Source of the DNA: Patiria miniata
Taxonomy: Eukaryota
Length of the DNA: 64,000 nucleotides
Reading direction: 5' to 3'
Assembly: GCF_015706575.1 (NCBI RefSeq)
Contig: NW_024037076.1
Span: 22,733,286-22,797,285 of the forward strand
Part shown: one piece after another, positions 1-20,399 of the stretch
How positions within the stretch are numbered: the first letter of the stretch is position 1
How the letters are laid out: the number at the start of each line of letters is the position of its first letter
Translations under genes and position numbers: made by a program
Notes under the pieces: model-generated
What the model saw: only the letters and a program-made list of their open reading frames with translations
What the model was told of the DNA's origin: nothing
Databases searched by the model: none

Positions 1-14
1 TCAGAGCCGTTTAC

Positions 15-83
15 CTTGAAGAGATAATCCAGGATCTGATCCAGATACGGCTCAGGATAATTCACCAATAACCTGGACGTAGC
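15..83 (-). CDS. GALC: GALC paralog copy B exon 2, encoding [23 protein letters not shown]. The remainder of copy B lies beyond the left edge of the window.
   Basis: Positions 1-105 are identical to 12575-12680 apart from one synonymous change. The acceptor cag and the gtaaac donor are the same as in copy A. Confidence 0.75.
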
Positions 84-829
84 CTGGACAAAAACAAGTT
101 CATCTTCAAAATTAGTGGATGTTAAGGCTTGAAATGACAATTTATGGTAGGGTACCAATAGGTACTACTTTACTTACAATCCAGATGAAAAGGGAAATTT
201 CCAGTTAACTTCCGAGAGCTCACTGCTCATGGAAATGTTAAACTTCCAACTCATTTGAAAGACACATTGGGTCGTACCCAGTGTTTGTTAATGGTCCCGA
301 GTGTGATTCTGTTATTGTTAACTTAAGTTTTGACTAAAACAGTCGTCAGGTGTGCGCTTCAGCACCAGTTGACGAGGTTCTGTGTGTTTTCTTGTGGGTC
401 TCTTGTGACCACACTGTCACACCTAGGTTATGTGAATTCCTGATGAGCTTGTTAAGCTGGAGTTACTCAAGCTAGTTTTGAAGGTGAAATCTGATGTTTT
501 TGTTGGCAATGATGGGTTTTTGGGTCAACGGTAGCTTGAGTAACTCCAGCTTTAATCCTTATCTTATGCGATAAGCATTAGAGCTGGAGTTACTCAAGCT
601 AGGTCAACAGCAGAATTGTGTCACGTGATGGCAGCACCATTGCTTGGATCCTACTATCGCCAGACCACGTCCGAATGTTATTAAATAGGCGACAAGTTGG
701 GTCCCAGTTACTCGGACTGTATGGGCTGGGGTCATTAAATGATTTATCATGAGAATGTAATGACTGTTGAACCTGACTGTTTATCAATATCTAGCATTAT
801 TACACCATTTTTAATTTGTTTGCAAATAT

Positions 830-1433
830 GGTTGAATTATACATGTACATTAAATTGAAGCTCTGGACGGGAGGAAGACAATGGCGCAAAAATAAATGCC
901 ATAGGTGCTTCCTTTCAGGAGTTATGCCCTCCCAAAGACACCATACTCGTGACTCTTCTGGTCGTCATTTGTGTCAACGTGATTGTTTTCTTAGAAATGA
1001 GCATAGGCCCTACTGTTTATTTTAAGTTCCCATTTAGTCAAACTTGACATCAAATTAAAGCTCTTGATGTGAGAAAGACAATAGTGCAAACGATATTGCC
1101 GTAAGTACTTTCCATCAGGAATTATGCCCTCCTGAAGACACCATACTCCATGAATTCGTCTGGTTGTCATTTCAGTCAACATGATATTTTAGCTTCAAAT
1201 ATAGTCAAACTTAAAATCATATTAAAGCTCTGGTGTAAACGATATTGCCATAGGTGCTTTTGTTAAGGAGTTATGCCCTCCCGAACACACCGTACTCCTG
1301 TAACTCTTCTGGGCATCATTTAAGTCAACATGACTGTTTACTTAGAAATGAGCACACTGGGTTTTTTTAAGTTCAAATTAAGTCAATGTTTACATTAAAT
1401 TAAGATAGTGGATATTTTGCCGGAGGTAATGAC
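830..1433. repeat. Tandem satellite with a unit of about 185-200 bp and three and a half copies. The units carry conserved blocks attaaagctct, gccataggtgctt, gttatgccctcc and agtcaac.tga. The array continues as a partial unit after the insertion, at 1956-2010.
   Basis: Direct comparison of 848-1050, 1051-1215 and 1216-1395 shows 80-90 percent identity between the units. Confidence 0.7.
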
Positions 1434-1955
1434 GGCAAACTAACGTTTACTAAAGGTTTGCCGGCGGCAATCCATATCAACAGAGGGCGCTGTACTCTTT
1501 AAGATAGGGCTGAATTATAAGATGTATTAAATTCTCACCAAAAGTTGTGTAGCACGTTTAGTGTAGTGGTTAAGCAAAGGCTCTAGTAAGCGGGATGACT
1601 CAGGTTCAATTCCGACCGCAGCACATTTTTAAGGTTTTTTTTCTCATCCCCAAATAAATAAGAATATTCTTCTTTTATTATTTTAACATGTCTCAAACAT
1701 TTTTTTGCAGAGTATTACATTTTCTTTTTCAGATTTGTGGCTCTGGAGGATTTTTTTTAAAAGGGAAATAAAGTCCGAAATTATAAAATGGTCTGAATCC
1801 CATCTTGTGAATACGAGGTTACAACGATAATTTTGGCATGGAGCCAGACTAAAATTTGTCACCGGAAAATGTTTAAGTACAAAAAAACAGTAACTGCGCA
1901 TGTTCAGTGCATATCCGGCAAACTAACGTTTACTAAAGGTTTGCCGTCTCTGGCA
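1434..1955. mobile_element. Insertion of about 460 bp into the satellite, bounded by two identical 30-bp direct repeats GGCAAACTAACGTTTACTAAAGGTTTGCCG at 1434-1463 and 1926-1955. Each repeat is itself an imperfect palindrome. The insertion carries the tRNA-like element and a pol-III terminator.
   Basis: The terminal direct repeats are exact. An outer inverted repeat, atattttgccgg and ctggcaaaatat, is also present. Satellite sequence resumes immediately on both sides. Confidence 0.5.
1551..1626 (+). pseudogene. tRNA-like pol-III element (tRNA pseudogene or SINE head). It has a D-loop TAGTGTAGTGGTTA and a T-loop GGTTCAATTCC but no intact acceptor stem. Oligo-T terminators follow at 1626-1642.
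   Basis: Conserved tRNA D-arm and T-arm boxes (A-box and B-box) are present. The 5' and 3' ends cannot pair into a 7-bp acceptor stem. The element lies inside a hairpin-flanked insertion. Confidence 0.45.
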
Positions 1956-2223
1956 AAATATACACTGCCTTAAATTAAACCTCTTGATGTGCAAAATACA
2001 CTAGTAGTACTAGTATAAAAAAATCTCAAATTTATTTCCATTCTCTGTTATTAAACCGCTCTAATCCACCCCACTTCCACACCCCAGTATCAGTTTCACC
2101 CCATAGGCCCATCCCACCGGTACCCCAACACAACCCACGAGTTAAACACAATATCAAGTTTACTGGTTTGGTTAGGTTATCATGGTTATGGGGCTAGGAA
2201 ATCTGCAAATTTTAAGCACTTAC

Positions 2224-2370
2224 TCCTCCACCACTGAGTCCGCCAATTCCATCAAACCGCCTTCCAAGCCCTGGTACATCACTTATCACGTATTGAGAGG
2301 CTACAGAATAGCTACCAATCAACTGCAACACGAATAAAATGTGAAAAACCTCTGCGATAAAATACGACAT
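2224..2370 (-). CDS. GALC: GALC paralog copy B exon 1. It encodes MSYFIAEVFHILFVLQLIGSYSVASQYVISDVPGLGRRFDGIGGLSGGG and is followed by a gtaagt donor.
   Basis: The 147-nt exon is collinear with copy A exon 1 and differs at 5 aa (AH to SY, AS to VP, Y to F). The donor is the same, and the 5' UTR similarity extends about 100 bp upstream (2371-2470 compared with 14421-14520). Confidence 0.8.
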
Positions 2371-2595
2371 TGTCGGCTCCTCTCGATCTCAATGTTTAAT
2401 GATCTGGTGCCCTAAAATTGTTGAATCGGTACAACTACCACACCACTAGACACCAGACATACCAGGCGCCCAAAACATATGAGGCAAGATATGAGGCACA
2501 ACTTTTGACCACATATCTTTTATATTTCGTACTTGCTGCTATTACAAAAAAAATCGCGCGAGAGCCGACATGTTCCTTATCGAGTGCTGATTGGT

Positions 2596-2608
2596 CAGTT
2601 TGGGAGGT
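2596..2608. promoter_or_regulatory. Inverted CCAAT box (gctgATTGGtcag), about 230 bp upstream of the copy B GALC start codon.
   Basis: The motif is an ATTGG or Y-box type and lies in a CpG-containing segment (tcgcgcgagagccgac) 5' of exon 1 on the coding strand. Confidence 0.25.
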
Positions 2609-3508
2609 GTGGCACTTAATATTCATAAATCTGTCACAAGTTTTTATATTGATCACGAAATTACAAATAAATGCCCGTGAACTAACTTTAGTTATTACAG
2701 CAAATAGGCCAGGCCTGACAAATAAAGAAATAAATTATTATATTATTTAAAAAAAAAAAAAAGGATAAAAAGAACTCCACTTTCTTGAAAAATCATGAAC
2801 AAATGAATGTTGCATAGATTATTTTATTTTCCTCATCTTAACGGCACTTTACATTTGTTATGTCAAGAGTTAAATCATAATTTGTGGTTGAAATAGCTGA
2901 AGAAGTAATTCAATCCGATAACCAGGTCATTTATTTGGCCATTTTACATTCAGGCATCACTGTGGGAAGTTGATGTTCAGCTAATAAACCAGCTTTTGTC
3001 TGAAGTAGTATTCTCATGAAAGATTCTCCCTCCCACAAAACTCTCACTGTTTGCCAAACCAAGGTTATAATGGTTTGATAGCATTCATCATGGAATAACT
3101 CTCAAAGAAATGTATTCATACAAGTAGGAATAGGAAATATGACAATGCAAAGGCTCATTTTATTTCACTTCTAAAAATGAAAGAAAACTTGATTAAGCAG
3201 CTGGGAACACTTCCAGCATTCTGTAAGTACACAATTAAGTAAATTTTAACTTAAATACATGTACTCAGTTCTGTAGAAATATGTGGAAAATATAAAAGAG
3301 TATTACTACTCTTCAGACTAGAAATCTACGGCATATTAAGAGTATTACTACCCTTCGGACTACTCTACAGAATAATAAAAGTATTACTATCCTTCCGAAA
3401 AAAACAACTAGTTTTAATAATACAATGTAGTACCATCCAGTACATCAGTTTTTCAAATTCTCAGTAACACTAGCCAAATCAACCTGTATATTATGTTTTA
3501 GAGTGGTT

Positions 3509-3514
3509 TATTTA
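3509..3514 (-). terminator. Candidate polyadenylation signal (AATAAA) of GALC copy A, about 440 nt downstream of the stop codon.
   Basis: The plus strand reads tttatt within gagtggtttatttattg. The position suits a 3' UTR of a few hundred nt, and no other coding sequence follows. Confidence 0.35.
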
Positions 3515-3952
3515 TTGTGTCAATGGTAGAAACCAGATGATCATTTGCCATTTTTACCATCATGATGTTTACCATTTATATTTAAACTTCAACTTTACTG
3601 TTGACGTTAATAATATGTATTATGTCCACTTTTAAATGTATTTTTTTTGTTAGTATACATGTAAATGTTACCATGTGCAATTCAGCTGCAAGGATGCAAT
3701 ACATTGGATTTTGTAATACACCAAAATAATACATTGGTGTACTGAATTAATTCTTGGTTTTACGCCCCCCCCCCCACAAAAAAAAAGGGCAAAGAAGGAC
3801 GTTACTCATCAAAAGTTTAATGTTACTGTTTCTTGTAGTAACACTTGCATCATATGCCTGCCTTCATAGGCTAAATGGTTTGTTTTTTAAGTTACAGGTC
3901 AGTAATAACTGATCATGTTACACATGTAAGTACCTGGCACTGAGCTATCAAT

Positions 3953-4105
3953 CTAAGATGCTGAAATAATGTCGAAATTATCAAACTGCGCTGATGCATA
4001 GTTAGGCATTCCCATGGCAACGAATCCATGACTGGGGATTGTCTTAGGATCTAGTGATGCAGTGAACAGCGTCTTGCCTTGGACGAATCCTGTAGCTTTG
4101 TTGTC
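3953..4105 (-). CDS. GALC: GALC copy A terminal exon 15, encoding DNKATGFVQGKTLFTASLDPKTIPSHGFVAMGMPNYASAQFDNFDIISAS and the TAG stop at 3953-3955.
   Basis: The acceptor is ttgcctccag. The sequence matches the human C-terminus [25 protein letters not shown]. An AATAAA signal lies on the minus strand at about 3509-3514. Confidence 0.88.
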   Translation of the reverse strand, partial: DNKATGFVQGKTLFTASLDPKTIPSHGFVAMGMPNYASAQFDNFDIISAS

Positions 4106-4436
4106 CTGGAGGCAACACAGAGAAAATAAAACAAATGAAAAACAGTCACAGTGACCATCTGTGTACCATCAATACGTATCATGATCAAAACTGCATTCTC
4201 AAATGCACTGTGTATTACTAAATCTTTTAAAACTGGAATGTTGTAATTATTTTAGTATTTTAATGACAACAGATCCGCGATCCATGTCAATAAAATAATG
4301 TAATACCAAATATTCTCATTCATTCATAAATTGGCCAATTCAAAATCTGACCTTATAATATGCAACCATCTAATCAACAGACCATAAAGCCGTTGCTTAA
4401 CTTGGACATCCTGACCAACCACCGACAATTTCTTAC

Positions 4437-4513
4437 CTGAATCAGAAGTTGCATTTTGAACCACATTCCACTCTTGACATCAACTTGACCGGAATTCAGA
4501 AGAAATTGGCGAT
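4437..4513 (-). CDS. GALC: GALC copy A exon 14, encoding (H)RQFLLNSGQVDVKSGMWFKMQLLIQ.
   Basis: The acceptor is tttttttcaattcag and the donor is gtaaga. The sequence matches human [25 protein letters not shown]. Confidence 0.82.
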
Positions 4514-4724
4514 CTGAATTGAAAAAAACAACATTAAATTGTTAACATGACAAAGATATCTTTTGTAGTATTTCCTTGTTTTGGGTGCTACAGTGAGTAA
4601 TAGGCAGGGCTGTTTTTGGTATTACAATGACTAAAGGATTAAATCAATTACTTCATTATTCCAAAGGTAAAAAGTTACACCAAATTCAGTTGAAAGGCTC
4701 TGTGATATATAACAATGAACTTAC

Positions 4725-4882
4725 GTATGTCTGAGTAAACAGCAAATGTCCCATTGGAGTAAACAATAAAGAACAGTCCCGTTGCCGCGACAACCTTACA
4801 GCCACCATGGTTGATACGTTGCGCAAGAAATGCACCGGTATTATCTCCCAGCTTGACGTCCATGGAAACGTTGGCGTTCTGC
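4725..4882 (-). CDS. GALC: GALC copy A exon 13, encoding QNANVSMDVKLGDNTGAFLAQRINHGGCKVVAATGLFFIVYSNGTFAVYSDI.
   Basis: The acceptor is ttccattgtag and the donor is gtaagt. The sequence matches human [56 protein letters not shown]. Confidence 0.88.
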
Positions 4883-5252
4883 CTACAATGGAAATAAATA
4901 GCAAGGTAGTTCTAACATCACAGTGTAACATACATGGAGGAGAATACAGAATGATCAAATAAATCAAATGCCTACACTTGCAACACATTGGCAAACCAAA
5001 AAATATGTTGATTGGCAAAACAAAAAATGGCTAAATATTTTGGACGCACCAGTCAGATAAACACTACAAGCCTCTTAGGAGTTCCTGTGAGATCCATCCC
5101 CCCACCCCCGAAATAATCCACTGATAAAATGTCTTATTTTGCTCCCATCTGCAATCCAGTCTGTGCCGACTTGGTCACAAAACACAACCTAAGGACAAAG
5201 AAAACACAGACAGGCAGACCAACTAACAAACGATAAGACCAAATCCATTTAC

Positions 5253-5427
5253 CAGGAGTAGTTGCCAATGACAGAGATAGGAGACTCAGCCGCTGGACAC
5301 CAATAGACTGGTGACTCAAGGACAACCTGTTCCATCACCAATTTATGAGTCGGGTCACCAGACTCTCGAATCTCCCAAACACCGGCCTGGTCAGCAAAGT
5401 TACTAGCTTCGCTGAATTCTGGGTAAT
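5253..5427 (-). CDS. GALC: GALC copy A exon 12, encoding (N)YPEFSEASNFADQAGVWEIRESGDPTHKLVMEQVVLESPVYWCPAAESPISVIGNYS(W).
   Basis: The acceptor is ccatccag and the donor is gtaaat. The sequence matches human [60 protein letters not shown]. Confidence 0.88.
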
Positions 5428-5812
5428 CTGGATGGATAGAATTCATTGGCAGAAAAACAAAACAATAATTGAATGTAGAGGGTATATTCATGTGGAATTT
5501 AACCTGATTATTGTTGAAAATTTGCTGTTGATAAATTGAAAGCAACAATATCATCGGCAGCACCACTAAGTGACATATCGTGTGCACAAAGTCCATCTAC
5601 AGATGCACCCAACAATATGAAAGAAAAAAACTGGAGTGCAATTTTGACGAAAAGCACAGAAAGAGATAAAGGCGGCTACAAAGGCACAAACAAAGAATTT
5701 AAGTGATACAACCTTAATACCACAACAGGTTCAAAGCCTTTTTCAACAGAAGTGAACTTTGTTGGGAGCTATGGTTAGGTTGCATAGATGATATAATTGA
5801 AAACAAACTCAC

Positions 5813-5954
5813 TGTCAAAGTTATCTGAGTAAGGTACAGGGAAGGGGGCAGATGGCGGGGGTGTAGGGTAGTTCCCCTTATAACCCCTCTCAGTGGTTGT
5901 CAGGGTGTAAACCTCATCAGGATTCAGACTTAAGGTGAAACTGCCATTCACAAC
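5813..5954 (-). CDS. GALC: GALC copy A exon 11, encoding VVNGSFTLSLNPDEVYTLTTTERGYKGNYPTPPPSAPFPVPYSDNFD.
   Basis: The acceptor is tttcag and the donor is gtgagt. The sequence matches human [47 protein letters not shown]. Confidence 0.88.
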
Positions 5955-6164
5955 CTGAAATTAAGCAAGAGGCGAAATGTTCAAATCCAGCATTAAATGA
6001 AAAGTCAGGCCAGTCGGTCAGGCTGAGCCAAAAAAAGTCATTTCAAACCAACAAAATTGTCTTTGCCAACCATTATCAAAATATTTGAGGCAGTAAGAAT
6101 ACGATTCTGTGGTCTTTACGTTAAGTCAGGAATTAGACAAACACCTCGGACATTGAAAGCCTAC

Positions 6165-6254
6165 CTTAATTGGATTCTTCTTGGCAAACATTGTTGATGT
6201 CTGGCCACTGAATGTGAGCTTGGAATACCACACATTAAGACTGCTAACTTTGGC
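6165..6254 (-). CDS. GALC: GALC copy A exon 10, encoding AKVSSLNVWYSKLTFSGQTSTMFAKKNPIK.
   Basis: The acceptor is cttttcag and the donor is gtaggc. The sequence matches human [25 protein letters not shown]. Confidence 0.85.
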
Positions 6255-6563
6255 CTGAAAAAGTAAAAGAAAAAAAGAAAATAGAATACCGACCCATTTT
6301 GCATTTGTTTGGAGATACAATTATTGAAAAATAAACAAAAACTGTTGCAAACTTCTGACTTATTAGATTTACCTGAAATGTAAAACTATAAAATTTAGGG
6401 GGCCTAATGTGAAGATCGTAGATGGATCTTTTCTTTTTAAAGTTTCTGCTTAGATCAAAATGTCAAGACCTCCAACTTGATTGTTTGTAGATAATGTGTC
6501 ATCACAAATGTGAACTGAACTTATATTTTGTTATTGTTCTAATAAAGATGACATTTTACTCAC

Positions 6564-6653
6564 AAAACTGCCTTGGAGAGTAAACTTGGCTGTCTGGGGT
6601 GCCACATTGTAAGGTGGTAAGTAGGGGCGGATACACTTAGAATGATCATGAGT
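6564..6653 (-). CDS. GALC: GALC copy A exon 9, encoding [30 protein letters not shown].
   Basis: The acceptor is ttttttttacag and the donor is gtgagt. The sequence matches human [30 protein letters not shown]. Confidence 0.88.
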
Positions 6654-7011
6654 CTGTAAAAAAAATGTGAATTAAATGTTATTGTGTGTTACAAGGTTTT
6701 TTCTTCAGTGGAACTGTTTCCTTGAATTTTAGTACACTTAAAGCATGACATATCTTTAATATCTTGTAATATGAAGCTTGGCAAGAAAAGATTATATATT
6801 ATTGCATAATTTCTCTTCATTCCACCTTTAAACTAAAACTTCAGAATCCTGCCTTCGGATGTCTTGAATAAGACAGAACGTGAAATGTGATTTTGTCATA
6901 TGAAAGCAGTTTAAAGCAATCAATCGTTTCTACAAGTTCATACTTGAATAAAATTCAAAATAAGTTTCTGGGTTTTTTCTTAAATAGATTTTTTCTTAAG
7001 TGTCTACATAC

Positions 7012-7145
7012 CATAGTCTCTATAATGATGGTCAAATTAACACCGTCCGTCATGGATACAAAGCTTCCTCCCTTGTCTAGATGCTGCACTCCAGACTTGT
7101 GCTTCAAATACATCCATCCCGGATCAGTAAACTGAGTGGTATGAG
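7012..7145 (-). CDS. GALC: GALC copy A exon 8, encoding (A)[44 protein letters not shown].
   Basis: The acceptor is ttgttcag and the donor is gtatgt. The sequence matches human [43 protein letters not shown]. Confidence 0.9.
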
Positions 7146-7677
7146 CTGAACAAAATATACAGTCGATTAGACAATTATGTGTAGACGATTCAGACTTTGT
7201 GTCTGTGGCTACAGATGTTCACGGTAGTGTGTCAATCATTGCAAAGCCGTAGTCAAATAAATACTGGATTACAACATATTTGACAGTCTGCATGATGAAG
7301 TTAGCAATGAGAGTAAGTTTGCAGTAGAACTATTTATGTCTGTGGGTTTGTGTGGTTCCGTTACAATCCAGGAAATAAAACATGTTGTATAGTAAGCTCT
7401 GCCTGATCATCAGAACTCTCAATAAATAACTGATTTAGAATGTGGTCTTACAAATTTTTACTACCAACTTCTTAACTGCGGGAGCGGAGGGATTTAGCCA
7501 CAACGTTGAATGAAGAGGTTGTGATGAACTCGCAAGCTACGTCATGCTTAACAAAATCAAAATCAGACTCTGAAAGGTAACTATCATTTCTATGTCAACT
7601 TCGTAACTGATTGGTCTTCATCAGTCCATTATGTTTACGGCAAACTGAACATCTTACAGAGCGCCCTCATTACATAC

Positions 7678-7840
7678 CCGTTATCCAGATTGTATCAGTG
7701 ACCTCATAGTGCGAATTCCACGGCTCGTTGGCTGTCATAAGTCCGTCACGTGTATACGGCAAAGCGTCATAGTACGATGCTATCAGGTTCCAGGAGATTG
7801 TAGAAGTCATCATTCCATTCACGTAGTTCTGGTTCAAGAT
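7678..7840 (-). CDS. GALC: GALC copy A exon 7, encoding [54 protein letters not shown].
   Basis: The acceptor is tctgcag and the donor is gtatgt. The sequence matches human [54 protein letters not shown]. Confidence 0.9.
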
Positions 7841-8113
7841 CTGCAGATAGCAAGTCAGGAATTCCAATCAATTTGGAATGAGCGATACAGGTGCAGTGCC
7901 AACAAATGGAGACTTTCAACCAGTTCTTTTGAGAACTACACAAACTTACAAAAGAGATTTCTTTCACATGGTGCACCAACAAACTTCCTCTGACACAACT
8001 TTACCAGATAAAATGATTAAATAAACCAACAAAGATGCTTGCATGCAACAAAATAAGTTAAAACAGCCTACACAGATTTATCACACACCAAAAAAACCAT
8101 AACTGTCGCCTAC

Positions 8114-8231
8114 CCTGGCCCAACATCCTGCTCCAACTTCATTATTGTTTGTGCTGTAATCTTCCGATGCCCAGATGGTCTTGCCAGTTTCCAACGTGTA
8201 GTTGGTGACTTGAGTCCCAGGATAATGCACC
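8114..8231 (-). CDS. GALC: GALC copy A exon 6, encoding [39 protein letters not shown]. It contains the nucleophile-region motif SEDY (human SSEDF).
   Basis: The acceptor is cctacag and the donor is gtaggc. The sequence matches human [39 protein letters not shown]. Confidence 0.9.
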
Positions 8232-8740
8232 CTGTAGGAAGTACATTTTATTTTATTGCAATTATACAACTTAGAGTGCATCACAAATTTCAATTCATGA
8301 TGTGTTTGATGATCTTTAGTTTTGGTATAATTTATTACCTATCTGCTCATTGTTCTCCACAATAGAAAGTTCTTATCTCTAACAAAAAATGCATGTCTAA
8401 ACACTGATGGTGCTCATATGATGTAATGACATTGCTAAATATTTACCGTTATTGATAATGTTCAATTGCTTCAAGTTAACAACTTTGCTAATACCATCTT
8501 TAAAAGTTAATTACAATATAATTAGCTTGCTTAGGAATGATAAACTCATTTACAAGTGAAGTTAGAGTGTCATGGTGTACAGCAGAATGGTAGGTGCGCT
8601 GGTTTTAAGGAAGCACAGGAGATCAAAGGAGTATGATATGAACAGAAAATATGAAAGAAAATAATAAATGAACCTCAGCCACCAAACAGTTGCAGTCCAA
8701 TTGATTGATGAAATAGGAAATACATGTGTTTGAATCATAC

Positions 8741-8907
8741 CCAATAATAGCCACATCTTTGGCAATTTCTGGGTCGTTGTGTATCGCGATACTGATGAAT
8801 TCAAGATTGTCAGCTGCTACAATTAGCGTCTCAGAAAGACCTTTCTTATCCAGCGTTTTTCGGAGAACTTTTATGTATTCAATATCAAAGGGTCGTTCGT
8901 TCCATAT
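8741..8907 (-). CDS. GALC: GALC copy A exon 5, encoding IWNERPFDIEYIKVLRKTLDKKGLSETLIVAADNLEFISIAIHNDPEIAKDVAII(G). It contains the WNE acid/base motif.
   Basis: The acceptor is cag and the donor is gtatga. The sequence matches human [34 protein letters not shown]. The exon ends with GG, completed to a glycine codon by exon 6. Confidence 0.9.
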
Positions 8908-9338
8908 CTGATAACAGAAGAAGCAAAGTTACCGTATAAACAAACAAAAAAGTTTTATATGCCATGAATTTCAAGATGTGGCACATTCAAAACATTTGAC
9001 AAAGTTTAAAAATATGCAAATACGTTCTCGCTCGAACCTTGGATTGGGCATCATGGTCCAAAGATTGACAGTCATATTGGGGAGGCCATTTTACAGTTAC
9101 CGCAGACCTTTGACCTTTGTATCCCATGAATGGAGTTTTGATAGCCTGCCCTGAAATTTAACTACAATTGCCCCCCAAAAATGCAAATTCTAAGGCAACT
9201 TCACTGCAACAGGAACCTTCCAAGGAAAATGTTACTGGTTTTAAGTTAGAATGATGCATTAATTCGCGTGATAAGGAAGCATTAGTGCAGCCATCTTGGT
9301 CATGTTCCCTAATAACTGCTATAAAGGGCCATCAGATC

Positions 9339-9532
9339 CATTCGCTCTTTGCACGTTCCTCCATATGTAAGCATGCAGTGCCTCGATCTGGCAACTTTGC
9401 ACGATAAAAATAGCCGGTTTAGTGATTCCCATGTATACACGCGAATAACTGAACCGGCGATATTTATTGTGTAAAGTTGCCCGATCGAGGCTCTGCATGC
9501 TCATGGCAGCTAGAAGCGTGCAAAGAGTGAAT
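9339..9532. repeat. Long palindrome or foldback element of about 195 bp in GALC intron 4. Its arms are cattcgctctttgcacg..gcatgcagtgcctcgatctggcaactttgcacg and cgtgcaaagttgcccgatcgaggctctgcatgc..cgtgcaaagagtgaatt, separated by an inner palindrome aaatagccggtt/aaccggcgatattt.
   Basis: Reverse-complement comparison shows about 90-nt arms with only a few mismatches. Confidence 0.6.
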
Positions 9533-10304
9533 TGGCACCAGACCATTTTGTAGCAAAATTAAGTTGGCTGCAAGTTAGCTAATTGTTCGCAACATCTTAG
9601 TTACATTTCACTAATTGTTAAGACTGTCTTATATTCTGAACCCATTCTGAGACTGTGCAATAGAAAAGTGGTTGTGTATCATGTCTCTTGACGACAGGGA
9701 AGAGTATTCTGTCTGAAAATGTTGACTTTACCCGAATCTTTACAGAACCTCACAAACTCACAAAACAGATTTGTCAAGTGGCGCTAACACAAATCTTTAT
9801 GCTATTGCTATCTTCCCCACACAAACCTTCAAATTTGATTATGAGCACTGTATTTTTAATGAAATGCACTCTGATGTTTAAATGTGCGCAAAGAAAAAGC
9901 ACAGAGGTGGAAAGCAGATTTAGGATAGATGAACTCAAGCCTCCTACCCTATAATCTGAACAGCTGCAGCCAATGCTTTATCCATCAAGATATCCTGACT
10001 GATTGCTGATGTCCCATCAGCAGCAACCACTGCTATATGGCTGAGGCCAGCTTTGTTTAGAGAGGATCTCAAAGTCTTGATGTAGGTAGAGTTATATGGC
10101 CTTTCATTCCAAATCTAGAATTAGGAATATTGAATTCTTCAGTATATGGACCAATTTGGAAGAACTCTTGAATTTAAGTATCAAGTCACATAAATATTGC
10201 TAAACAAATTCAAAAAATACAATGGCATGGTAGAAAGACCAACTTAGACAAGCAGCAGCAGAGGAAAAAAAAGAAAAAAAATAATTGTAAAAATAAGCAA
10301 TTAT

Positions 10305-10500
10305 TAGTATTTTTTTTTTTTTAATTAATTTATTCAGCTTATCAAATTAGGTTTTGCCCTTCACCGACATATAAACACTGTATACTCAGTGTGTTACCTC
10401 CCGAGTGAAAGTTGGAAAGAATCACTCGGGTGGGACTCAAACCCACGACCTCCTGCTTTCTAGTGCAGATGTCTTACCACTCGACCACCGAGCTAATGGG
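10305..10500 (-). mobile_element. tRNA-derived SINE-like element in GALC intron 4. The tRNA-like head is at about 10425-10497, with a B-box GGGTTTGAGTCCC. The body ends in an A-rich tail (plus-strand T-run at 10307-10321).
   Basis: A-box and B-box motifs, a tRNA-like cloverleaf with imperfect stems, and a 3' poly-A tail are all present. The element is related to the copy at 51730-51800. Confidence 0.5.
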
Positions 10501-11098
10501 ATCGGTTGGCTGGTTCGAATCTGATGTACATAGCAGCATGGATACAGCATGGTACATCACAATACAACAGACAAAAGCCAGCAGCAAATGCCAGAAATTG
10601 AAAAAGTTAACTTATTAATAACTGTGATCGTATGGCCTTCAATACCAATACCAGTGGCTACAAATCACATACATTAAAAAGAAGAACAGTTGCCGAGTTA
10701 TATCACATTGAAGTCATGCATTTATCCATGCAAGAAAGTGGTAACTGCAAAATGGCCTACCCAATGACCTGAACTGCCTTGGCCAGTGCAGGATCCTTCA
10801 GGATATCATAACTGATTCGAAATTTGCCGTCTGCAGCAACAACTTGAACATGGTGGAGTGATTTCCGATCTAGAGTTGCCCTAAGTAATTTGATATATGA
10901 AGCATTATGCTTCCTTTCATTCCATATCTAAAATTGGGAAAAAAGAAAATTCTTGAGAATCAAAACTTTTAAACATGTTGAAAAACATGAAACACACAAT
11001 TTGAACTCATTTGATGCCTGCCATTTTGAACTATTACTTGGCTGGACAATCAAATTTGGAGGAAGAAAGCTATATAAAAATAATCAATTGAAACTTAC

Positions 11099-11263
11099 CC
11101 CAATATAATCAATGGTCAGATTGTGGTGAGTTTTTGCTCCTTGTATCCATTTGATGATGTAGTCAACAGTGACATCAATATTGACATAGGGACTTTGTTG
11201 GCCATTCCCAATCCAGCCAGGGAAAGCCCAAGGAAGGCCATACAGCTTGATGCTTGGATTGCG
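11099..11263 (-). CDS. GALC: GALC copy A exon 4, encoding [21 protein letters not shown]...NLTIDYIG.
   Basis: The acceptor is ttctgcag and the donor is gtaagt. The sequence matches human [21 protein letters not shown]...DLDIDYIG. Confidence 0.9.
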
Positions 11264-11883
11264 CTGCAGAAAGATGTAACATGAAACAGTAGTAGACTAA
11301 TAAATCACCCAAAAGATTAAAATGCCCTAATAAAAATCCAAGCATGCTAAAATTGATTCCTACAATTCAGTAAGAAAAAGCTGATCAAATGAAAAGAGAG
11401 AAGGTCAATTAACCCAGCTTACAGATTACTGAAGAAAATATAAACCTGAAACAGTAGCCAGTAATATTAGAAACCATTGATGGCAATCCTGGAAGGTTCA
11501 TGAAGAGTTTTCTTTTATAAAAAAAAGTTTATAGTGCACCATTTATCAATCTGACACCATCCGTTTGATTGAATGTGACTGAATCAGGACAAGTGTACAA
11601 CGCCAGGGAATAAGTCAGGCTGTAATTTCCTGAATGATACGATGCTACAATGCAATGAGTCTCATTAAGTCACAGGTGGTTTTGTATTGCTGCTAGGAGC
11701 AAAAAAATATGAAAATGAAGCATGGGGTGAAATCCAGGCTATGGAGTCTGCACTGAGGAAACAGTACCTTTTAGTGTCAGATGGTGTCCAATGTTTACAT
11801 CCATCCAAAACTTCATAAGTGTTCAGCCCCCCCCCCCAAAAAAAAGTGGTGTAAGAGCACCTCAAAACAAGTCTCTCTGTTAC

Positions 11884-12036
11884 CTTTTTAGCCTCCTTCA
11901 TCAGCCACCATTCATATCCTCTCTGATAATTCTCATCGTTAGCTGAATGCATATGAGATGACTCTGTTCCATCAGTGCTTTGTGAGTCTCCACCAATCTC
12001 AACCTTTAAGATGGGAAGTGATGCTCCAAAATTTGG
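11884..12036 (-). CDS. GALC: GALC copy A exon 3, encoding [51 protein letters not shown].
   Basis: The acceptor is ttaacag and the donor is gtaaca. The sequence matches human [51 protein letters not shown]. Confidence 0.9.
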
Positions 12037-12587
12037 CTGTTAACGTGCAGAATCAGAAGTAGTTCATTACTTATGTGCCTGGTTGGAGATAATGTCTGAT
12101 AAGTTTGTTCATATCTGCAGTTGTACCAAGCTGCTTAGTGCAGCCACATAGTTATAAACTAATATTAACATTTTCCTTATTTGGTGAAAATTTCAATTTG
12201 GTAGTTAAAAATAAAACTAGAGGTGGTTGTAACTGAAGATGTTCCCAACATATTTTTAACTGTCTATTGGACAGTACAAAATGATTGAATGATTTGTCCA
12301 AAATGTGTAACCATTGAAAATGAAATTTAATCTTTAATAATTGCAAAACTGGAAGAAAAGGTCACATGACCTTGACATTCCAGGAGGTGGATTCCAAATT
12401 CCAGTCTACTATGTGAAAATGTGTGAAGAAATAGAATAACTTATTGTACTGTTAAGATATGGTGGCCACAAAATTGCCTCATTAAATATTCATGACGTCA
12501 TAACACAAGAACAATAAACTGCACAGTAATAATAATGACAAAAAGACATTTATTCCTTAGAAAAGGTCAATTTTCAGAGCCGTTTAC

Positions 12588-12656
12588 CTTGAAGAGATAA
12601 TCCAGGATCTGATCCAGATACGGCTCAGGATAATTCACCAATAACCTGGATGTAGC
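12588..12656 (-). CDS. GALC: GALC copy A exon 2, encoding [23 protein letters not shown].
   Basis: The acceptor is tttttgtccag and the donor is gtaaac. The sequence matches human [23 protein letters not shown]. Confidence 0.9.
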
Positions 12657-14273
12657 CTGGACAAAAACAAGTTCATCTTCAAGCTTTACTTTAGCTTTGA
12701 TCAAATCAGAGTCAAGGTAGCCGTATTCTATGGCCATGCACTGGACTAAACTCCGTGCTGAAGGCCATACTTCCCTGACAACAAGAAGTTACTGAAAAGA
12801 TGTTCTTTTTTTTCATAGAAATCATTTGGCCTCAAACTCGGCATGCAGGTTCACTTACCCATGCGATTCCATTATTTGCCAAAATGAGGACTTCTCCGTT
12901 GTTCTTTCTGGTGTAATTTGTATCTTACTTTGTGACACGAAGCAGCCGTTCTGTCATCGATCACGCGAACATTAACGATAAGTGTTTTCAGCGCTATGGC
13001 TAGTTCCTGTGCCCGCGTATTCTCAACCGGAGAAGACCTAGACGTACAGGTAAGCTTTAGACAGGAGGTTCGGCTACAACAGTTAAATCACTTTGGTCGG
13101 AGAACTAGACTAATACTACACTCAGCTGCCAGCCATGAACTTCCACTTCGGTTGGCAAATTAATTTTTAATAAGAGGCAAATTTCACCAGAAGGAAATAA
13201 AGGGAAGTCCTAATTTTGGGCAAATATTGAAAGGTCTTTTTTTTCTTCAAACTGCCAATCTTTGGATGGAACGTGCGTAAGACCGAGCCACAGAGTTTAC
13301 TATAGACTACGGCGAGGCAAAAAACATACTGTTATTCGTTGACGAATTTTCAACTATCAGAGATTCTACAACTAATATTTTGTTTCAACAAACATTCGAT
13401 GCAAGAGTTTATACGACTGCAAAGTATGAACAAAATAGGCGAAATCACACAGTCCGAGTGATGTACTGAGGAGAACATTTTCTCCTTTTTCGTGATTTTC
13501 TAACAAGCCGTCCACATGTCAAAGCGCGAGTCCGAAATCTGTCCAAAATTTCTTTTCTTGAGTTTTTATTGAAAAATTCTGGAAAGAATGTTGCAACCTG
13601 ATGGCTGAAGCCACATCAGTGGTTGTGTACAAAGTCTATGGACAGTCAAGACAATTTTCTGATTATTTCCTTAAAACAAAATTGAAAACGTTTCTCAGTC
13701 ACAGATCCATGTCTAATCTTTATGCAATGACTGACCCTCATTGAGATGATACATGAAGAAAAAAGCAGCGTCAGGTTGCAACATTCTTTCCAAAGATCTT
13801 TGTGTATCATTATCAAGAAGCTTACAGTTTCCTTTTCAAAATGCACTCCGTAGAAACAATAGTATTGGAAACCAATTCTAAAAGAGGTCAGTTTGGAAAG
13901 ATTCCTATATCTGGCCATCACTAAAAAATTGTCCCTTTGGCTTTATTTTTAGTTACCTATCTGCCATCATAAAGAGGATCGGCCTATGTCCTAAAAAGTC
14001 AAATTTAATAACAGGAAAAATATTGAATAATGAAGTACTTACTGAGAAAACACATACACAATTTCAGAGCAGTGTCATAGGGTTTGTGCACAGGGTGACA
14101 AGTGATGGCCAGGTATGGGAATATTTCCATACGTTTTTATTTGAAGCGATCTGGAACTTGGAAAAAAATCCAGAACTGTAGGGCCTGGAAAACCACTGTA
14201 CACTGCTACTGCAAATTGCAATTGAATCGTGAAATCGGGGGGGCAAGGAAATCTGCAAATTTAAAGCACTTAC

Positions 14274-14420
14274 TCCTCCACCACTGAGTCCGCCAATTCC
14301 ATCATACCGCCTTCCAAGCCCTGATGCATCACTTATCACGTATTGTGAGGCTACAGAATAGCTACCAATCAACTGCAACACGAATAAAATGTGAAAAACT
14401 TCTGCGATAAAATGCGCCAT
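14274..14420 (-). CDS. GALC: GALC copy A exon 1, carrying the ATG and the signal peptide. It encodes MAHFIAEVFHILFVLQLIGSYSVASQYVISDASGLGRRYDGIGGLSGGG and is followed by a gtaagt donor.
   Basis: The ATG sits at 14418-14420 on the minus strand. The hydrophobic leader and the DGLGR.DGIGG.SGGG motif match the human GALC N-terminus. The exon ends at the same position as human exon 1. Confidence 0.88.
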
Positions 14421-14544
14421 GGTTTGCCTCCTCTCGATCCCAATGTTGAGTGATCTGGTGCCATGAAATTGTTGAACAAGAACTACATACCGTACCACTA
14501 GACGCCAGACATGCCAGGCACCAATTATTTCTCGTCACCTGATG

Positions 14545-14554
14545 ATCACGTGAC
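14545..14554. promoter_or_regulatory. CLEAR-like palindromic E-box aTCACGTGAC (9 of 10 positions match the TFEB/TFE3 CLEAR consensus GTCACGTGAC), about 125 bp upstream of the GALC copy A start codon.
   Basis: The plus strand reads gatgatcacgtgacccaag. GALC encodes a lysosomal hydrolase, and lysosomal genes are typically regulated through CLEAR elements. The motif is absent from the equivalent position upstream of copy B. Confidence 0.4.
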
Positions 14555-14559
14555 CCAAG

Positions 14560-15260
14560 CTTTTGGGGGCCGGGGGGGGGCCGCAGGCAAGGGGGGGGGC
14601 ACAGAAATATTTTTGGGGCAGTCAAAATAATATCTGATTCCCCAAAAAGCTAAGGCACAAGCAGTGCAATGGCACGTTTAAATGAAACAATCACTACAAT
14701 GACACAAATGACTACGGTATTAGTTTGTCATAATGCTACAAAACTAAAATTTCACTATTCTTTCAACTATAATTCTGATTCTGAATTGTAGTACTTTTCT
14801 TGTTAATATGACATGGCACATTTATTTTGAAAAAAAAAAAACTGAACTATTGAAGTGTCCCATAAATGATCACATGTCTACTGGAATTGTGTAAAGAATA
14901 GTGTCAGTTGAAGCACAGTCTACAGGCGTGGATCCAGAGGGGGGCGGGGGGGTCAAAAAAAAAAACCAGCTCTGTCCAAAAAAATTTTTTTCCATACAAT
15001 ATCCTAAAAAATAAGTCGAAAACCCCCCCTGCTGTGACACCCCAAAAAAGTTATACTGGTATAATGTTTGCCTGTTCAAAATACGGTACACCATTCTGTA
15101 ATGTAGTGTTAATAATCATCAAATTTGAACAGCGCCCCCTATTAAAGTATGGTACCAGCCCCCCCCCCCCCCAAGTGTCAGGAGAAAAAAAACCTGTGTA
15201 CATTTTCTGAATTTTTTGCTGATGAAAACCCCCCCCCCCCCCTGCGAAAATTCCTGGATC
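14560..15260. repeat. Low-complexity block rich in long G and C homopolymers (G10 at 14571, G9 at 14586, C16 at 15157, C14 at 15226, plus several G7-8 and C7 runs and A-runs), immediately upstream of the GALC copy A promoter. The segment 14922-15270 is bounded by tGGATCCagagggggg and ctGGATCCgcccctgg.
   Basis: The tracts can be read directly in the sequence. The ORF-track entries 14870..15344 fall inside this block and are artefactual. Confidence 0.6.
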
Positions 15261-19795: not shown

Positions 19796-20071
19796 TCAAA
19801 GCGTCCGATTGAAATACAACACGGGTCCAAACCCAACTTAAGGCATTCCATATCCATGAAAATACACATAAACATGATCAACCGCTCCTACAAAACCAGC
19901 CATCTCGTGTTGACATGTACAAAACATGTCTTCCAGCGCTAACATTAGCGCCAACATCGACCAGTCTTCAATATCAAAAGTTCTGTGTCTACTCCTTGAG
20001 TGAGATGAGTGATAGAGGGTGGGGGTAGCCTGCCCTCCACCCGGGGGATAGGGGGTAGGGAGGATATCTCT

Positions 20072-20267
20072 CTATTGAGTTGGGAAGCCAGTATGCATAT
20101 AATTTCCTTGGGTTGAGTTAGGAGTCATGAGTCCTCTACTGGGAGCCATTCCTTGTCCGAGGGCCGAGATTGGTTGAGTTTGCTGGGCGTACTGTGTCTG
20201 TTGAACACCTTGTCCTTGTGGGAATTGACTCTGAACGTATTGCCCTTGCATAACCATACCTGACGCC
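20072..20267 (-). CDS. TIA1: TIA1-like terminal exon encoding (Q)ASGMVMQGQYVQSQFPQGQGVQQTQYAQQTQPISALGQGMAPSRGLMTPNSTQGNYMHTGFPTQ, with the TAG stop at 20072-20074.
   Basis: The acceptor is tcatttacag. The terminus GFPTQ* resembles human SGYRVAGYETQ*. It coincides with ORF track entry 20072..20257. Confidence 0.8.
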
Positions 20268-20399
20268 CTGTAAATGAGAACAAGAAACAGGTCAGATAAT
20301 CACTTGAGGAATCAAACTACCAGATTGAAAAGGAGACACTGGAAAATAAAGACTTGTAAAAGCTATTAACCCTAACCCTCCTCAATCCAACAGGATCCA

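Follow-up and report, generated by a model that had tools for sequence, protein, structure and literature searches.

The window analysed here, a 64,000-nucleotide stretch of Patiria miniata DNA, carries on its minus strand a complete galactocerebrosidase (GALC) gene (copy A) and, directly downstream of it, the first two exons of a second one (copy B; Table 1). Copy A consists of 15 exon positions with the ATG at 14420 and the stop codon at 3953, contains an intact open reading frame (ORF) of 666 aa, and shows GT-AG at every splice junction when spliced by hand, in agreement with the complete gene proposed in the sequence-only reading of this locus. The three spliced copy A models were each 100% identical to a RefSeq protein (XP_038045330, -331 and -332). 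Every copy A exon was covered by tblastn with GALC, while no additional GALC exons were found by tblastn at 14.5-64 kb of the window. All listed sugar-binding residues are retained by copy A, and the full set of three GH59 Pfam domains occurs both in copy A and in the copy B protein. In our best explanation copy A is, judging from its sequence, a functional lysosomal galactosylceramidase.

Copy B runs beyond the left window edge after exon 2. Its coding DNA in the window amounts to 216 nt, and the rest of the gene is known from the computational RefSeq model XP_038045329.1, a full-length protein of 666 aa whose residues 1-72 match the window exons exactly. Compared to copy A, exon 1 carries seven nucleotide differences, five of them non-synonymous (A2S, H3Y, A32V, S33P, Y39F) and two synonymous, and exon 2 carries a single synonymous one; the coordinates of both exons and the earlier count of 5 differing residues out of 49 were thereby reproduced. 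Over the full length, the two proteins are identical at 623 of 666 positions (93.5%), with 43 residues differing and no indels. Both copies have consecutive accession numbers on the same 28.6-Mb contig, with three RefSeq isoforms annotated for copy A and one for copy B. Given that the copy A models equal RefSeq proteins and that the copy B exons equal residues 1-72 of XP_038045329.1, the head-to-tail tandem pair is real and annotated, as the sequence-only reading had argued, and the further copy B exons to the left of the window exist according to the RefSeq annotation. At the level of gene models the pair is thus no discovery; new are the active-site changes of copy B, the promoter breakpoint and the mosaic divergence described below.

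Table 1. Features of the GALC locus, in window coordinates.
Feature	Position	Strand	Remarks
GALC copy A, ATG-to-stop coding span	3953..14420	minus	hand splicing, tblastn, RefSeq identity
Copy A exon 1	14274..14420	minus	147 nt; signal peptide and TIM barrel start
Copy A intron 1	12657..14273	minus	1617 bp
Inverted-repeat pairs in copy A intron 1	13580-13601/13771-13792 and 13891-13922/14101-14132
Copy A exon 2	12588..12656	minus	69 nt
Copy A exon 5a	10761..10927	minus	167 nt; catalytic acid/base motif WNE182; RefSeq isoform X3
Copy A exon 5b	9948..10114	minus	167 nt; isoform X2
Copy A exon 5c	8741..8907	minus	167 nt; isoform X1
Spacer, copy A stop to copy B ATG	2371..3952	minus	1582 bp; 3' region of copy A and copy B promoter region
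Copy B exon 1	2224..2370	minus	147 nt; residues 1-49 of XP_038045329.1
Copy B intron 1	84..2223	minus	2140 bp; interior non-homologous to copy A intron 1
Perfect 31-bp direct repeats in copy B intron 1	1433-1463 and 1916-1946		flanking a segment that includes a tRNA-like stretch
Tandem array in copy B intron 1	847-1403		three copies, unit ~190-200 bp, 66-79% identical; self-blastn
Inverted repeat in copy B intron 1	532-601
Copy B exon 2	15..83	minus	69 nt; residues 50-72 of XP_038045329.1
Duplicated block 1, copy A	14240..14522	minus	~100 bp 5' flank, exon 1, 34 nt of intron
Duplicated block 1, copy B	2190..2470	minus	upstream edge ~2470 = duplication breakpoint
Duplicated block 2, copy A	12574..12682	minus	exon 2 with 26 nt of intron 1 and 14 nt of intron 2
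E-box pair	14534..14554	.	just beyond the duplicated block; motif match
RRM-domain upstream neighbour, last coding exon	20064..20293	minus	tblastx with Asterias amurensis flank

Copy A carries three mutually exclusive versions (5a, 5b and 5c) of its catalytic exon 5, which the sequence-only reading had overlooked. These exons are neighbouring and homologous, have identical length and phase, and are each bounded by AG/GT splice sites. Each RefSeq isoform of copy A uses one version, and two together would shift the frame. The sole annotated exon 5 of copy B is of the 5b type: it is identical to 5b at 53 of 56 residues and clusters with it at 100% bootstrap within the sea-star 5b group. Type 5c is common to other sea stars and the brittle star Amphiura. 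Mutually exclusive tandem exon clusters, in which homologous, adjacent exons are each used singly, occur in many animal genes; unlike in such clusters generally, the module swapped here holds the catalytic acid/base residue and a loop beside the saposin site. Our literature search found no paper reporting mutually exclusive catalytic exons for GALC.

Active-site residues were mapped by alignment to mouse GALC (3ZR5/4CCC), with the correspondences E182 = E182, E258 = E257, S261 = S260 and R380 = R381. In its RefSeq model, copy B replaces two galactose-binding residues, S261 by N and R380 by W, and carries K in place of P302, a proline at the surface that adjoins the saposin-A site. In GALC, the sugar is hydrogen-bonded by W135, G48, T93, S261 and R380 (PMC4445328), and the human R380W protein is folded yet catalytically inactive (PMC5031207). 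P302R and E215K adjoin the SapA site, and P302R has been described as active (PMC5764952). S261 and R380 were unchanged in all 119 other homologs, and in a larger set both were kept in 149 of 150 GALC proteins, copy B being the lone exception. Beyond these two positions, four further near-invariant residues are altered in copy B; changes affect H374, Y318 and I274 (conserved in 119, 118 and 117 of the 119 other homologs, respectively). Copy B retains the catalytic glutamate pair and, of the eight sugar-pocket residues listed, six (G48, T93, W135, N181, W291 and W524). Because human GALC loses its catalytic activity through R380W and none of the other 149 GALCs departs from S261 and R380, copy B is probably not a functional duplicate of the enzyme, and we infer that it would no longer act as a saposin-dependent galactosylceramidase. 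As this loss is extrapolated from mammalian GALC, copy B may instead possess a compensated or re-specified sugar pocket. In the light of S261N, R380W and P302K, the picture of two working hydrolases implied by the earlier reading is doubtful.

Both Patiria copies can be aligned over the full length to mouse GALC (GH59; 3ZR5, 4CCC; E = 3e-226), share the three GH59 domains and the catalytic pair E182/E258 with the mammalian enzyme, and the exon structure of copy A parallels that of the vertebrate gene. They differ from mammalian GALC in the three alternative acid/base-glutamate exons of copy A and in the residues of copy B at positions 261, 380 and 302. Two of the latter recall the human Krabbe alleles R380W and P302R, copy B having W and the basic K at these sites; unlike those alleles, the copy B changes are fixed paralog differences beside an intact copy A, and their effect is predicted. 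Strongylocentrotus purpuratus likewise has a head-to-tail tandem GALC pair, with an upstream gene having alternative exon-5 isoforms (XP_030841404/05) and a ~90% identical downstream gene with a single isoform (XP_030841403). The downstream urchin copy shows a unique sugar-binding residue change, T93G, and its unused exon 5 has decayed by a stop codon and a frameshift (L003 13322-13483); the corresponding part of Patiria copy B is located beyond the window edge. The urchin paralogs cluster together and apart from the Patiria copies, indicating that the urchin duplication was independent or has been homogenised. Zebrafish galca and galcb, which go back to the teleost genome duplication as dispersed co-orthologs and are both treated as active enzymes, differ from the Patiria pair in not being tandem and in lacking a changed sugar pocket in one copy. 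The retention of these two paralogs in zebrafish (PMC12493051, PMC11002810) and of two loci in several fish contradicts, for teleosts, the earlier statement that GALC is single-copy in vertebrates.

Two duplicated blocks were detected by blastn: block 1 is 89.8% identical over 283 bp (2190-2470 versus 14240-14522; E = 1.5e-104), and block 2 is 99.1% identical (1-109 versus 12574-12682; E = 2.9e-50), its copy B side being clipped by the window edge. The common 5' flank extends for approximately 100 bp, with 82 matches, 18 mismatches and 2 gaps (~80% identity), and then ends abruptly, in line with the earlier description of a 5' flank of this length and of diverged promoters; beyond this flank, no similarity was found between the spacer with the copy B promoter region and the region upstream of copy A. 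The breakpoint, ~100 bp 5' of the copy B ATG, cuts copy B off from a conserved E-box pair (GTCACCTGA and GTCACGTGA) that is located 114-134 bp upstream of the copy A ATG and is missing from the upstream region of copy B. The same E-box motif is found 49-57 bp upstream of the ATG of Asterias GALC and, in S. purpuratus, ~255 bp 5' of the downstream copy, and by motif match the pair is a candidate lysosomal-gene (CLEAR-like) promoter element. In the spacer, CCAAT (~2591-2595) and TATAAAAG (~2517-2524) were recognised by eye, and the 5' region of copy B (2251-2750) has a CpG observed/expected ratio of 0.94. Given the position of the breakpoint, copy B would be driven by unrelated sequence, and it may be silent in transcription.

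The first introns of the two copies, earlier described as entirely different, align over their first 34 nt (94%) and last 26 nt (100%) only; the description holds for the interiors, between which word-7 blastn gave zero matches. The satellite proposed in copy B intron 1 was recovered by self-blastn as the array listed in Table 1, although it is diverged and was not called by TRF. For the proposed SINE, a stretch at ~1557-1630 is tRNA-like by eye and lies between direct repeats, but neither ARAGORN nor Rfam returned a call for it. The CpG-rich segment of copy A intron 1 is confirmed in its CpG observed/expected ratio (0.83-0.97 at 12751-13750, versus 0.47 window-wide), but with a G+C content of only ~0.40 it is no classical CpG island. 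No notable ORF was found in copy A intron 1.

Relative to Acanthaster, 22 informative sites united copies A and B as sisters, with 1 and 5 sites for the alternatives. On these alignments we place the duplication after the split from Acanthaster, as specific to the Patiria lineage. In Asterias, a single GALC occupies the syntenic place, and the 10 kb to each side of it contain no further copy. Among the matches listed, down to ~54% identity, neither Acanthaster nor Asterias showed a second GALC. The RRM-domain gene upstream of copy A has its syntenic counterpart upstream of Asterias amurensis GALC, indicating that copy A is at the ancestral position. Copy B evolved 2-3 times faster than copy A: changes unique to A and B numbered 11 and 22 with Acanthaster, the closest outgroup (p = 0.055, marginal), 6 and 20 with Asterias (p = 0.006), and 4 and 16 with Amphiura (p = 0.007).

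The difference between the copies is distributed unevenly over the exons (G = 37.2, Monte-Carlo p = 0.0005). Some exons and splice-site flanks are 99-100% identical, and in others 10-20% of the residues are changed; 'low' and 'high' exons differ by 1.5% and 12.5% between A and B, and by 16.7% and 20.6% from Acanthaster. This patchiness, together with the unalignable intron 1, suggests gene conversion or intron replacement, and could alternatively result from exon-specific relaxation near the active site without gene conversion. Synonymous divergence, a comparison raised in the earlier reading, is low (dS ~0.06, exons 1-2 only). With sister copies and such a dS, the unalignable intron needs interior replacement or exon-homogenising gene conversion rather than simple ageing; of the old duplication with intron turnover proposed earlier, the unalignable intron stands, while the sister status and dS make 'old' a relative term.

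The analysis shows directly the anatomy of the locus, its RefSeq identity, the residues replaced in copy B, the unequal rates of the two copies and the synteny, whereas loss of activity, gene conversion and the promoter effects are inferred. The best explanation is a real, lineage-specific head-to-tail GH59 duplication in which copy A holds the ancestral position and copy B is altered (probability about 0.72). A closely related possibility, which we hold only tentatively, is that copy B is a young, promoter-orphaned pseudogene under neutral drift, its ORF open by chance or through conversion repair; the two explanations overlap and differ solely in whether selection maintains copy B. Radical changes at invariant sites, the accelerated lineage, a pairwise omega of ~0.5 (exons 1-2), the lost E-box pair and the analogous urchin copy with one alternative exon 5 destroyed by stop and frameshift are all compatible with a pseudogene. 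Set against this are the absence of stops, frameshifts and indels across the 666 codons of copy B, its RefSeq record as a normal protein (neither low-quality nor pseudogene), and a 5' region with CCAAT and TATA-like motifs and the CpG ratio given above. The open ORF is nevertheless a weak sign of selection, since neutral simulation gave a 13-29% chance of zero stop codons after 22-36 missense changes (P = 0.13-0.29).

We consider it improbable that both copies are fully functional galactosylceramidases, redundant or sub-functionalised and differing mainly in regulation. Copy B does have a signal-peptide-like N-terminus, three GH59 domains at full score, its catalytic glutamates, six of eight sugar-pocket residues and an indel-free ORF, and promoters unrelated past ~100 bp would fit regulatory sub-functionalisation; however, R380W alone inactivates human GALC (PMC5031207), copy B stands by itself among 150 GALCs at S261/R380, four additional near-invariant residues are altered, and its rate is 2-3 times that of copy A. 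Slightly more doubtful still is an ancient duplication, no younger than the sea stars themselves, in which concerted evolution gives A and B their sister look and copy B was lost in other sea stars. The bimodal similarity of exon classes that are equally diverged between species, an intron 1 unalignable despite 95-99% identical exons, and the matching urchin arrangement of multi-isoform upstream and single-isoform downstream genes would agree with it, but informative sites unite A and B even in the divergent exons, the copy B exon 5 falls with 5b inside the sea-star 5b group, and the searches in Asterias (10 kb) and among the listed Acanthaster and Asterias matches revealed no second copy. Marine invertebrates are highly polymorphic and the exon-2 block is 99% identical, but an assembly artefact placing two haplotypes of one heterozygous locus in tandem is very improbable in view of 43 aa differences, some at universally invariant active-site residues, a 5' flank merely 80% identical with sharply ending homology, 1.6-kb and 2.1-kb intron 1 interiors without common sequence, three versus one annotated isoforms, and the same arrangement in the independent species S. 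purpuratus.

Under the preferred reading of a Patiria-specific duplication, copy A would have retained the ancestral site, the ancestral E-box pair, every active-site residue and the three exon-5 versions that make up the sea-star set, while copy B, starting 1.58 kb downstream of the copy A stop under non-homologous upstream sequence, would have kept an open frame, accelerated and acquired S261N, R380W and P302K. Gene-conversion patches from copy A and replacement of the intron interior would have produced the mosaic similarity. Copy B may thus represent a re-specialised or non-catalytic GALC paralog, or a gene entering decay.

Copy A, the complete galactocerebrosidase (GALC) gene of the window, was modelled from a reading of positions 1-15200 and from tblastn with GALC sequence, and was hand-spliced at GT-AG junctions. 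The resulting minus-strand gene extends from an ATG at 14420 to a stop codon at 3953 and encodes 666 amino acids in a reading frame that is uninterrupted with whichever single version of exon 5 is used. The best protein match to the spliced product was a Patiria miniata 'galactocerebrosidase-like' protein, and the corresponding 90%-identity cluster consisted of four RefSeq proteins, all encoded on one 28.6-Mb contig. XP_038045330, -331 and -332 (isoforms X1, X2 and X3) were 100% identical to the copy A models containing exon 5c, 5b and 5a, respectively. No further GALC exon was detected by tblastn in the remaining 14.5-64 kb of the window. A plus-strand hit to the histone 3' UTR stem-loop family was observed at 7917-7962, antisense in the intron that separates exons 6 and 7 of A; at 30.7 bits (gathering score 34) it is probably a chance match.

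Exons of copy A (positions in the window) and exon 5 versions in the GALC loci of Asterias amurensis (L001) and Anneissia japonica (L002)
Feature	Coordinates	Strand
Copy A E1	14420-14274	minus
Copy A E2	12656-12588	minus
Copy A E3	12036-11884	minus
Copy A E4	11263-11099	minus
Copy A E5, alternative 5a	10927-10761	minus
Copy A E5, alternative 5b	10114-9948	minus
Copy A E5, alternative 5c	8907-8741	minus
Copy A E6	8231-8114	minus
Copy A E7	7840-7678	minus
Copy A E8	7145-7012	minus
Copy A E9	6653-6564	minus
Copy A E10	6254-6165	minus
Copy A E11	5954-5813	minus
Copy A E12	5427-5253	minus
Copy A E13	4882-4725	minus
Copy A E14	4513-4437	minus
Copy A E15	4105-3953	minus
Asterias amurensis exon 5 versions	L001 14529-14696, 17616-17789, 19391-19567	
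Anneissia japonica exon 5	L002 6503-6670	

Downstream of A's stop codon and in the same orientation lie exon 1 (2370-2224) and exon 2 (83-15) of a second GALC gene, copy B, which starts 1.58 kb beyond that codon and continues past the left edge of the window. Copy B's ATG is preserved, and so are both splice sites of each of the two exons. The count of five differences in 49 amino acids, made for exon 1 in the sequence-only reading, was exact; at the nucleotide level the copies differed at 7/147 positions in exon 1 and at 1/69 in exon 2, and over these 216 nt dN was 0.031 and dS 0.062 (omega ~0.5). Residues 1-72 of the RefSeq protein XP_038045329.1 (666 aa), which is encoded on the same 28.6-Mb contig as A's proteins and has a consecutive accession number, correspond exactly to the two B exons of the window. 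Since this protein begins with these exons, copy B is annotated as a separate full-length gene adjoining A. The proposed head-to-tail pair was thereby borne out, with same-strand adjacency visible for B exons 1-2 and full length known from XP_038045329.1, and the GALC exons whose absence to the left would have marked copy B as a fragment are supplied, via annotation, by the full-length model. All statements on copy B past residue 72 refer to this RefSeq model, the DNA evidence being confined to exons 1 and 2.

Aligned without any indel, the A and B proteins differed at 43 of their 666 residues. These amino acid differences, the unalignable intron 1 and the dissimilar 5' region strongly favour paralogs over alleles or an assembly duplication. 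No pseudogene lesion (stop, frameshift, lost splice site or lost start) was found in the window exons or in the 666-aa RefSeq product. As a gene model, the tandem pair is an ordinary lineage-specific duplication that is already present in RefSeq.

The duplicated DNA of the window falls into two blocks by blastn. Block 1 (2190-2470 against 14240-14522; 89.8% identity over 283 bp) spans from ~100 bp upstream of the ATG to 34 nt inside intron 1, and its 5' flank is ~80% identical (82 matches, 18 mismatches, 2 gaps). Block 2 (1-109 against 12574-12682; 99.1%) begins 26 nt ahead of exon 2 and extends beyond the window edge. Both block edges within intron 1 are abrupt, and the intron 1 interiors of A (1617 bp) and B (2140 bp) displayed no homology in blastn at word size 7 with +1/-1 scoring.

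Two elements previously proposed for B's intron 1 were recovered in part. The 'satellite' corresponds to three diverged repeats of a ~190-200-bp unit at 847-1403 in self-blastn, but was absent from the TRF output; the 'SINE' corresponds to a tRNA-like stretch enclosed by perfectly matching direct repeats of 31 bp (1433-1463 and 1916-1946), but received no ARAGORN or Rfam call. The sole confident tRNA-like element from the repeat callers lies in copy A, on the minus strand at 10422-10494, in the intron that separates exons 5a and 5b (Rfam tRNA, 47.3 bits). It adjoins an A-rich tract, has an aberrant anticodon loop according to ARAGORN, and is probably a tRNA-derived SINE. Long palindromes able to form hairpins were seen in both copies, at 9371-9500 in A's intron between 5b and 5c and, as an inverted repeat spanning 532-601, in intron 1 of B; both gave sub-threshold matches to miRNA precursor families and resemble MITE-type elements. 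Intron 1 of A contains two pairs of short inverted repeats and, as the sequence-only reading had noticed, a CpG-rich segment (CpG observed/expected 0.83-0.97 at 12751-13750 vs 0.47 window-wide), in which ORFs were at most 91 aa long and none was recognisable. A further CpG peak (0.94 at 2251-2750) covers B's exon 1 and its upstream region. Both peaks may represent unmethylated regulatory DNA or young insertions.

The relative age of the copies was evaluated by synteny and by site patterns. A single GALC gene is present in the Asterias amurensis locus (GALC plus 10 kb per side), and the last exon of the upstream RRM-domain neighbour in this locus matches window positions 20064-20293. Further sequence from upstream of Asterias GALC is conserved in non-coding blocks at 15673-15923, 16158-16253 and 17461-17547 of the window; these are either 3' UTR of the RRM gene or intergenic elements kept between two sea star orders. 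Given this synteny upstream of A, it is copy A that sits at the ancestral site, B being the copy that was added. In a four-taxon comparison that took Acanthaster for the third taxon and Asterias for the outgroup, 22 informative sites joined A with B, compared to 1 and 5 for the other pairings, and no second Acanthaster or Asterias GALC was found among hits down to ~54% identity. Because of this site support and the lack of a second hit, the duplication is dated as younger than the split between Patiria and Acanthaster, unless an older history has been wiped out by concerted evolution.

Divergence between A and B is distributed unevenly over the gene. Exons 2, 4 and 11 have no A-B difference and exons 3, 8 and 12 have one each, and ~20% of the residues differ in exons 9 and 14. 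Heterogeneity among exons was significant when the expected counts were scaled to between-species divergence (G = 37.2, Monte-Carlo p = 0.0005). When pooled, the 'low' exons showed an A-B difference of 1.5% and an A-Acanthaster difference of 16.7%, and the 'high' exons 12.5% and 20.6%, respectively. The 99% identical exon-2 block with its sharp edge in an unalignable intron, the 80% identical 5' flank and the uneven exons are together consistent with gene-conversion patches superimposed on older divergence. Alternatively, change could have been concentrated in E6, E7 and E9, the exons of the active site, with the interior of the intron replaced wholesale.

Homology between A and B ceases ~100 bp upstream of the ATG, so the promoters were correctly described as diverged, and the duplication breakpoint cut B off from A's upstream region. 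Just beyond the duplicated block, 114-134 bp upstream of A's ATG, lies the E-box pair GTCACCTGA and GTCACGTGA (14534-14554). CLEAR (TFEB-type) elements are palindromic GTCACGTGAC-like E-boxes near the transcription start of lysosomal genes, and we take GTCAC[CG]TGA upstream of A to resemble them. The 64-kb window holds three matches to GTCAC[CG]TGA vs 0.77 expected, the third being located within B's intron 1 (620-628). The 41-kb Asterias locus holds a single match (L001 9944-9952), which precedes the GALC ATG by 49-57 bp; the exact TCACGTGA had no match in Asterias, the relaxed motif alone being common to both. A match also occurs ~255 bp upstream of the downstream GALC copy of Strongylocentrotus purpuratus (9738-9746 of its GALC locus, L003). 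The E-box pair of A is a candidate CLEAR element, a lead rather than a result. Upstream of B, a CCAAT motif (~2591-2595) and the TATA-like TATAAAAG (~2517-2524) were read by eye.

Copy A contains three versions of exon 5, a feature unmentioned in the sequence-only reading. Exons 5a, 5b and 5c are homologous, have their own AG/GT sites, share the same phase and measure 167 nt each (167 mod 3 = 2). As two versions together would shift the frame, exactly one must be used, and the RefSeq isoform models X3, X2 and X1 contain one version each (5a, 5b and 5c, respectively). By adjacency, length, phase and frame, the three exons are predicted to form a mutually exclusive cluster. The exchanged segment extends from IWNE182R, which holds the catalytic acid/base, to the loop matching mouse W214/E215 beside the saposin-A surface.

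The phylogenetic distribution of the cluster was followed in the GALC loci of the table and in GALC proteins (P0005, P0135, P0007, P0137, P0141, P0143, P0145 and P0147). Three versions of exon 5 occur in Acanthaster and Asterias, two in three genera of sea urchins as well as in the brittle star Amphiura, and one in the crinoid Anneissia. In a neighbour-joining tree built from the 56-aa peptides, sea-star sequences of the 5c type grouped with Amphiura (93% bootstrap), which places the origin of the cluster before the sea star-brittle star split, and B's exon 5 grouped with A's 5b (100% bootstrap). Alternative versions of exon 12, which encodes the lectin-domain loop with W524, were observed in Amphiura filiformis (P0135/P0005 vs P0136/P0134), where one version has R at W524, and in the gastropod Babylonia areolata (P0154 vs P0155), in which alternative exon 5 versions are present as well.

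We compared the two copies at the residues that define GALC function. Both display the GH59 architecture of a Glyco_hydro_59 TIM barrel, a central beta-sandwich and a C-terminal lectin domain, with Pfam scores far above the cut-offs for all three domains (402/153/171 bits for A, 403/142/171 for B), and both keep the catalytic acid/base and nucleophile (mouse E182 and E258; Patiria E182 and E257). Judged by domain content and catalytic glutamates, A and B are assigned to GH59. Patiria positions were converted to mouse numbering by alignment with 3ZR5/4CCC (E182=E182, E257=E258, S260=S261, P301=P302, R381=R380). Galactose is hydrogen-bonded by the side chains of W135, G48, T93, S261 and R380, its C2 substituent is contacted by N181 and E258, and galactose specificity is set by W291 (PMC4445328). 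From this source we took the set G48, T93, W135, N181, S261, W291, R380 and W524. Copy A has the full set, each residue being equal to the consensus of 119 homologs, and by this comparison it passes every active-site test.

Copy B has an incomplete set, with S261N and R380W. In Patiria numbering its changes are S260N, R381W (with the neighbouring I380T) and P301K. S261 and R380 are invariant in an alignment with 119 further GALC proteins, which range from sponges to vertebrates, and among 150 GALC proteins copy B is the only one changed at either position. It is further changed at H374 (conserved in 119/119), Y318 (118/119) and I274 (117/119). The Krabbe mutation R380W affects the active site and is described as abolishing catalysis while leaving folding intact (PMC5031207); copy B has, in an otherwise intact GALC, the inactivating Arg to Trp change known from human GALC in infantile Krabbe disease. 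P302R and E215K are active, correctly trafficked mutants located beside the saposin-A binding surface (PMC5764952). Like the residues of the sugar pocket, these positions are unchanged in copy A. In Tajima-type counts with exon 5 left out, unique changes in B and A numbered 22/11 with Acanthaster (p = 0.055), 20/6 with Asterias (p = 0.006) and 16/4 with Amphiura (p = 0.007) as outgroup.

The intact reading frame of B was considered as a sign of selection and found to be a weak one: in a neutral simulation on A's CDS, no stop arose in 13-29% of runs after 22-36 missense changes (P = 0.13-0.29).

As the sugar-binding test failed at two residues, copy B is not filed here as an active galactosylceramidase, and we infer that the ancestral activity, a saposin-dependent galactosylceramidase, has been lost or altered in B. 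The gene may either be kept for some other role or be in early decay. A more specific reading, which we consider doubtful at a probability of roughly one in four, is that B is a non-decaying GH59 paralog, maintained by selection, that would have given up galactose hydrolysis (S261N, R380W) and saposin-A coupling (P302K) for a new role under a newly acquired promoter of non-lysosomal type. That role would be either that of a glycolipid-binding pseudo-enzyme or that of a hydrolase with a new sugar specificity. The earlier description of GALC as single-copy in vertebrates does not apply to teleosts, which carry galca and galcb.

A similar situation was found in the sea urchin S. purpuratus, whose locus also contains a head-to-tail GALC pair (L003 1-6392 and 10001-21579). 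Of the two genes, the upstream one comes in two exon-5 isoforms (XP_030841404/05). The product of the downstream gene, XP_030841403, is 677 aa long and 89-92% identical; in this gene the first exon-5 version has decayed through a stop codon and a frameshift (L003 13322-13483), and the retained exon 5 has a 4-aa insertion. XP_030841403 further displays GCL in place of GCW and a change of the sugar-binding T93 to G that is unique among the 150 proteins. A GALC gene has thus been duplicated in tandem, and its downstream copy then eroded or remodelled, at least two times in echinoderms, or else the pairs have been homogenised twice.

In the literature searched we found no paper on Patiria GALC and none on mutually exclusive exons of GALC. 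The Krabbe-type substitution in a paralog, the conserved exclusive catalytic exon and the urchin parallel, likewise not found described there, are modestly interesting, and the useful part is the state of the second copy rather than the tandem pair as a gene model. The exon-5 swap of the catalytic acid/base segment together with the saposin-adjacent loop suggests isoform-level tuning of lipid-substrate presentation, which was not described for the Krabbe gene in this literature. Copy B constitutes a natural experiment that combines a Krabbe-type change, a second sugar-binding change and a change beside the saposin-A site in an otherwise intact GALC, and it allows testing whether the GH59 scaffold is re-used without galactosidase activity, or how fast the duplicate of a lysosomal hydrolase decays. 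If B is indeed a maintained paralog with a new role, active-site remodelling of a tandem GALC copy would be a recurrent theme in echinoderms, with T93G of S. purpuratus as an independent case.
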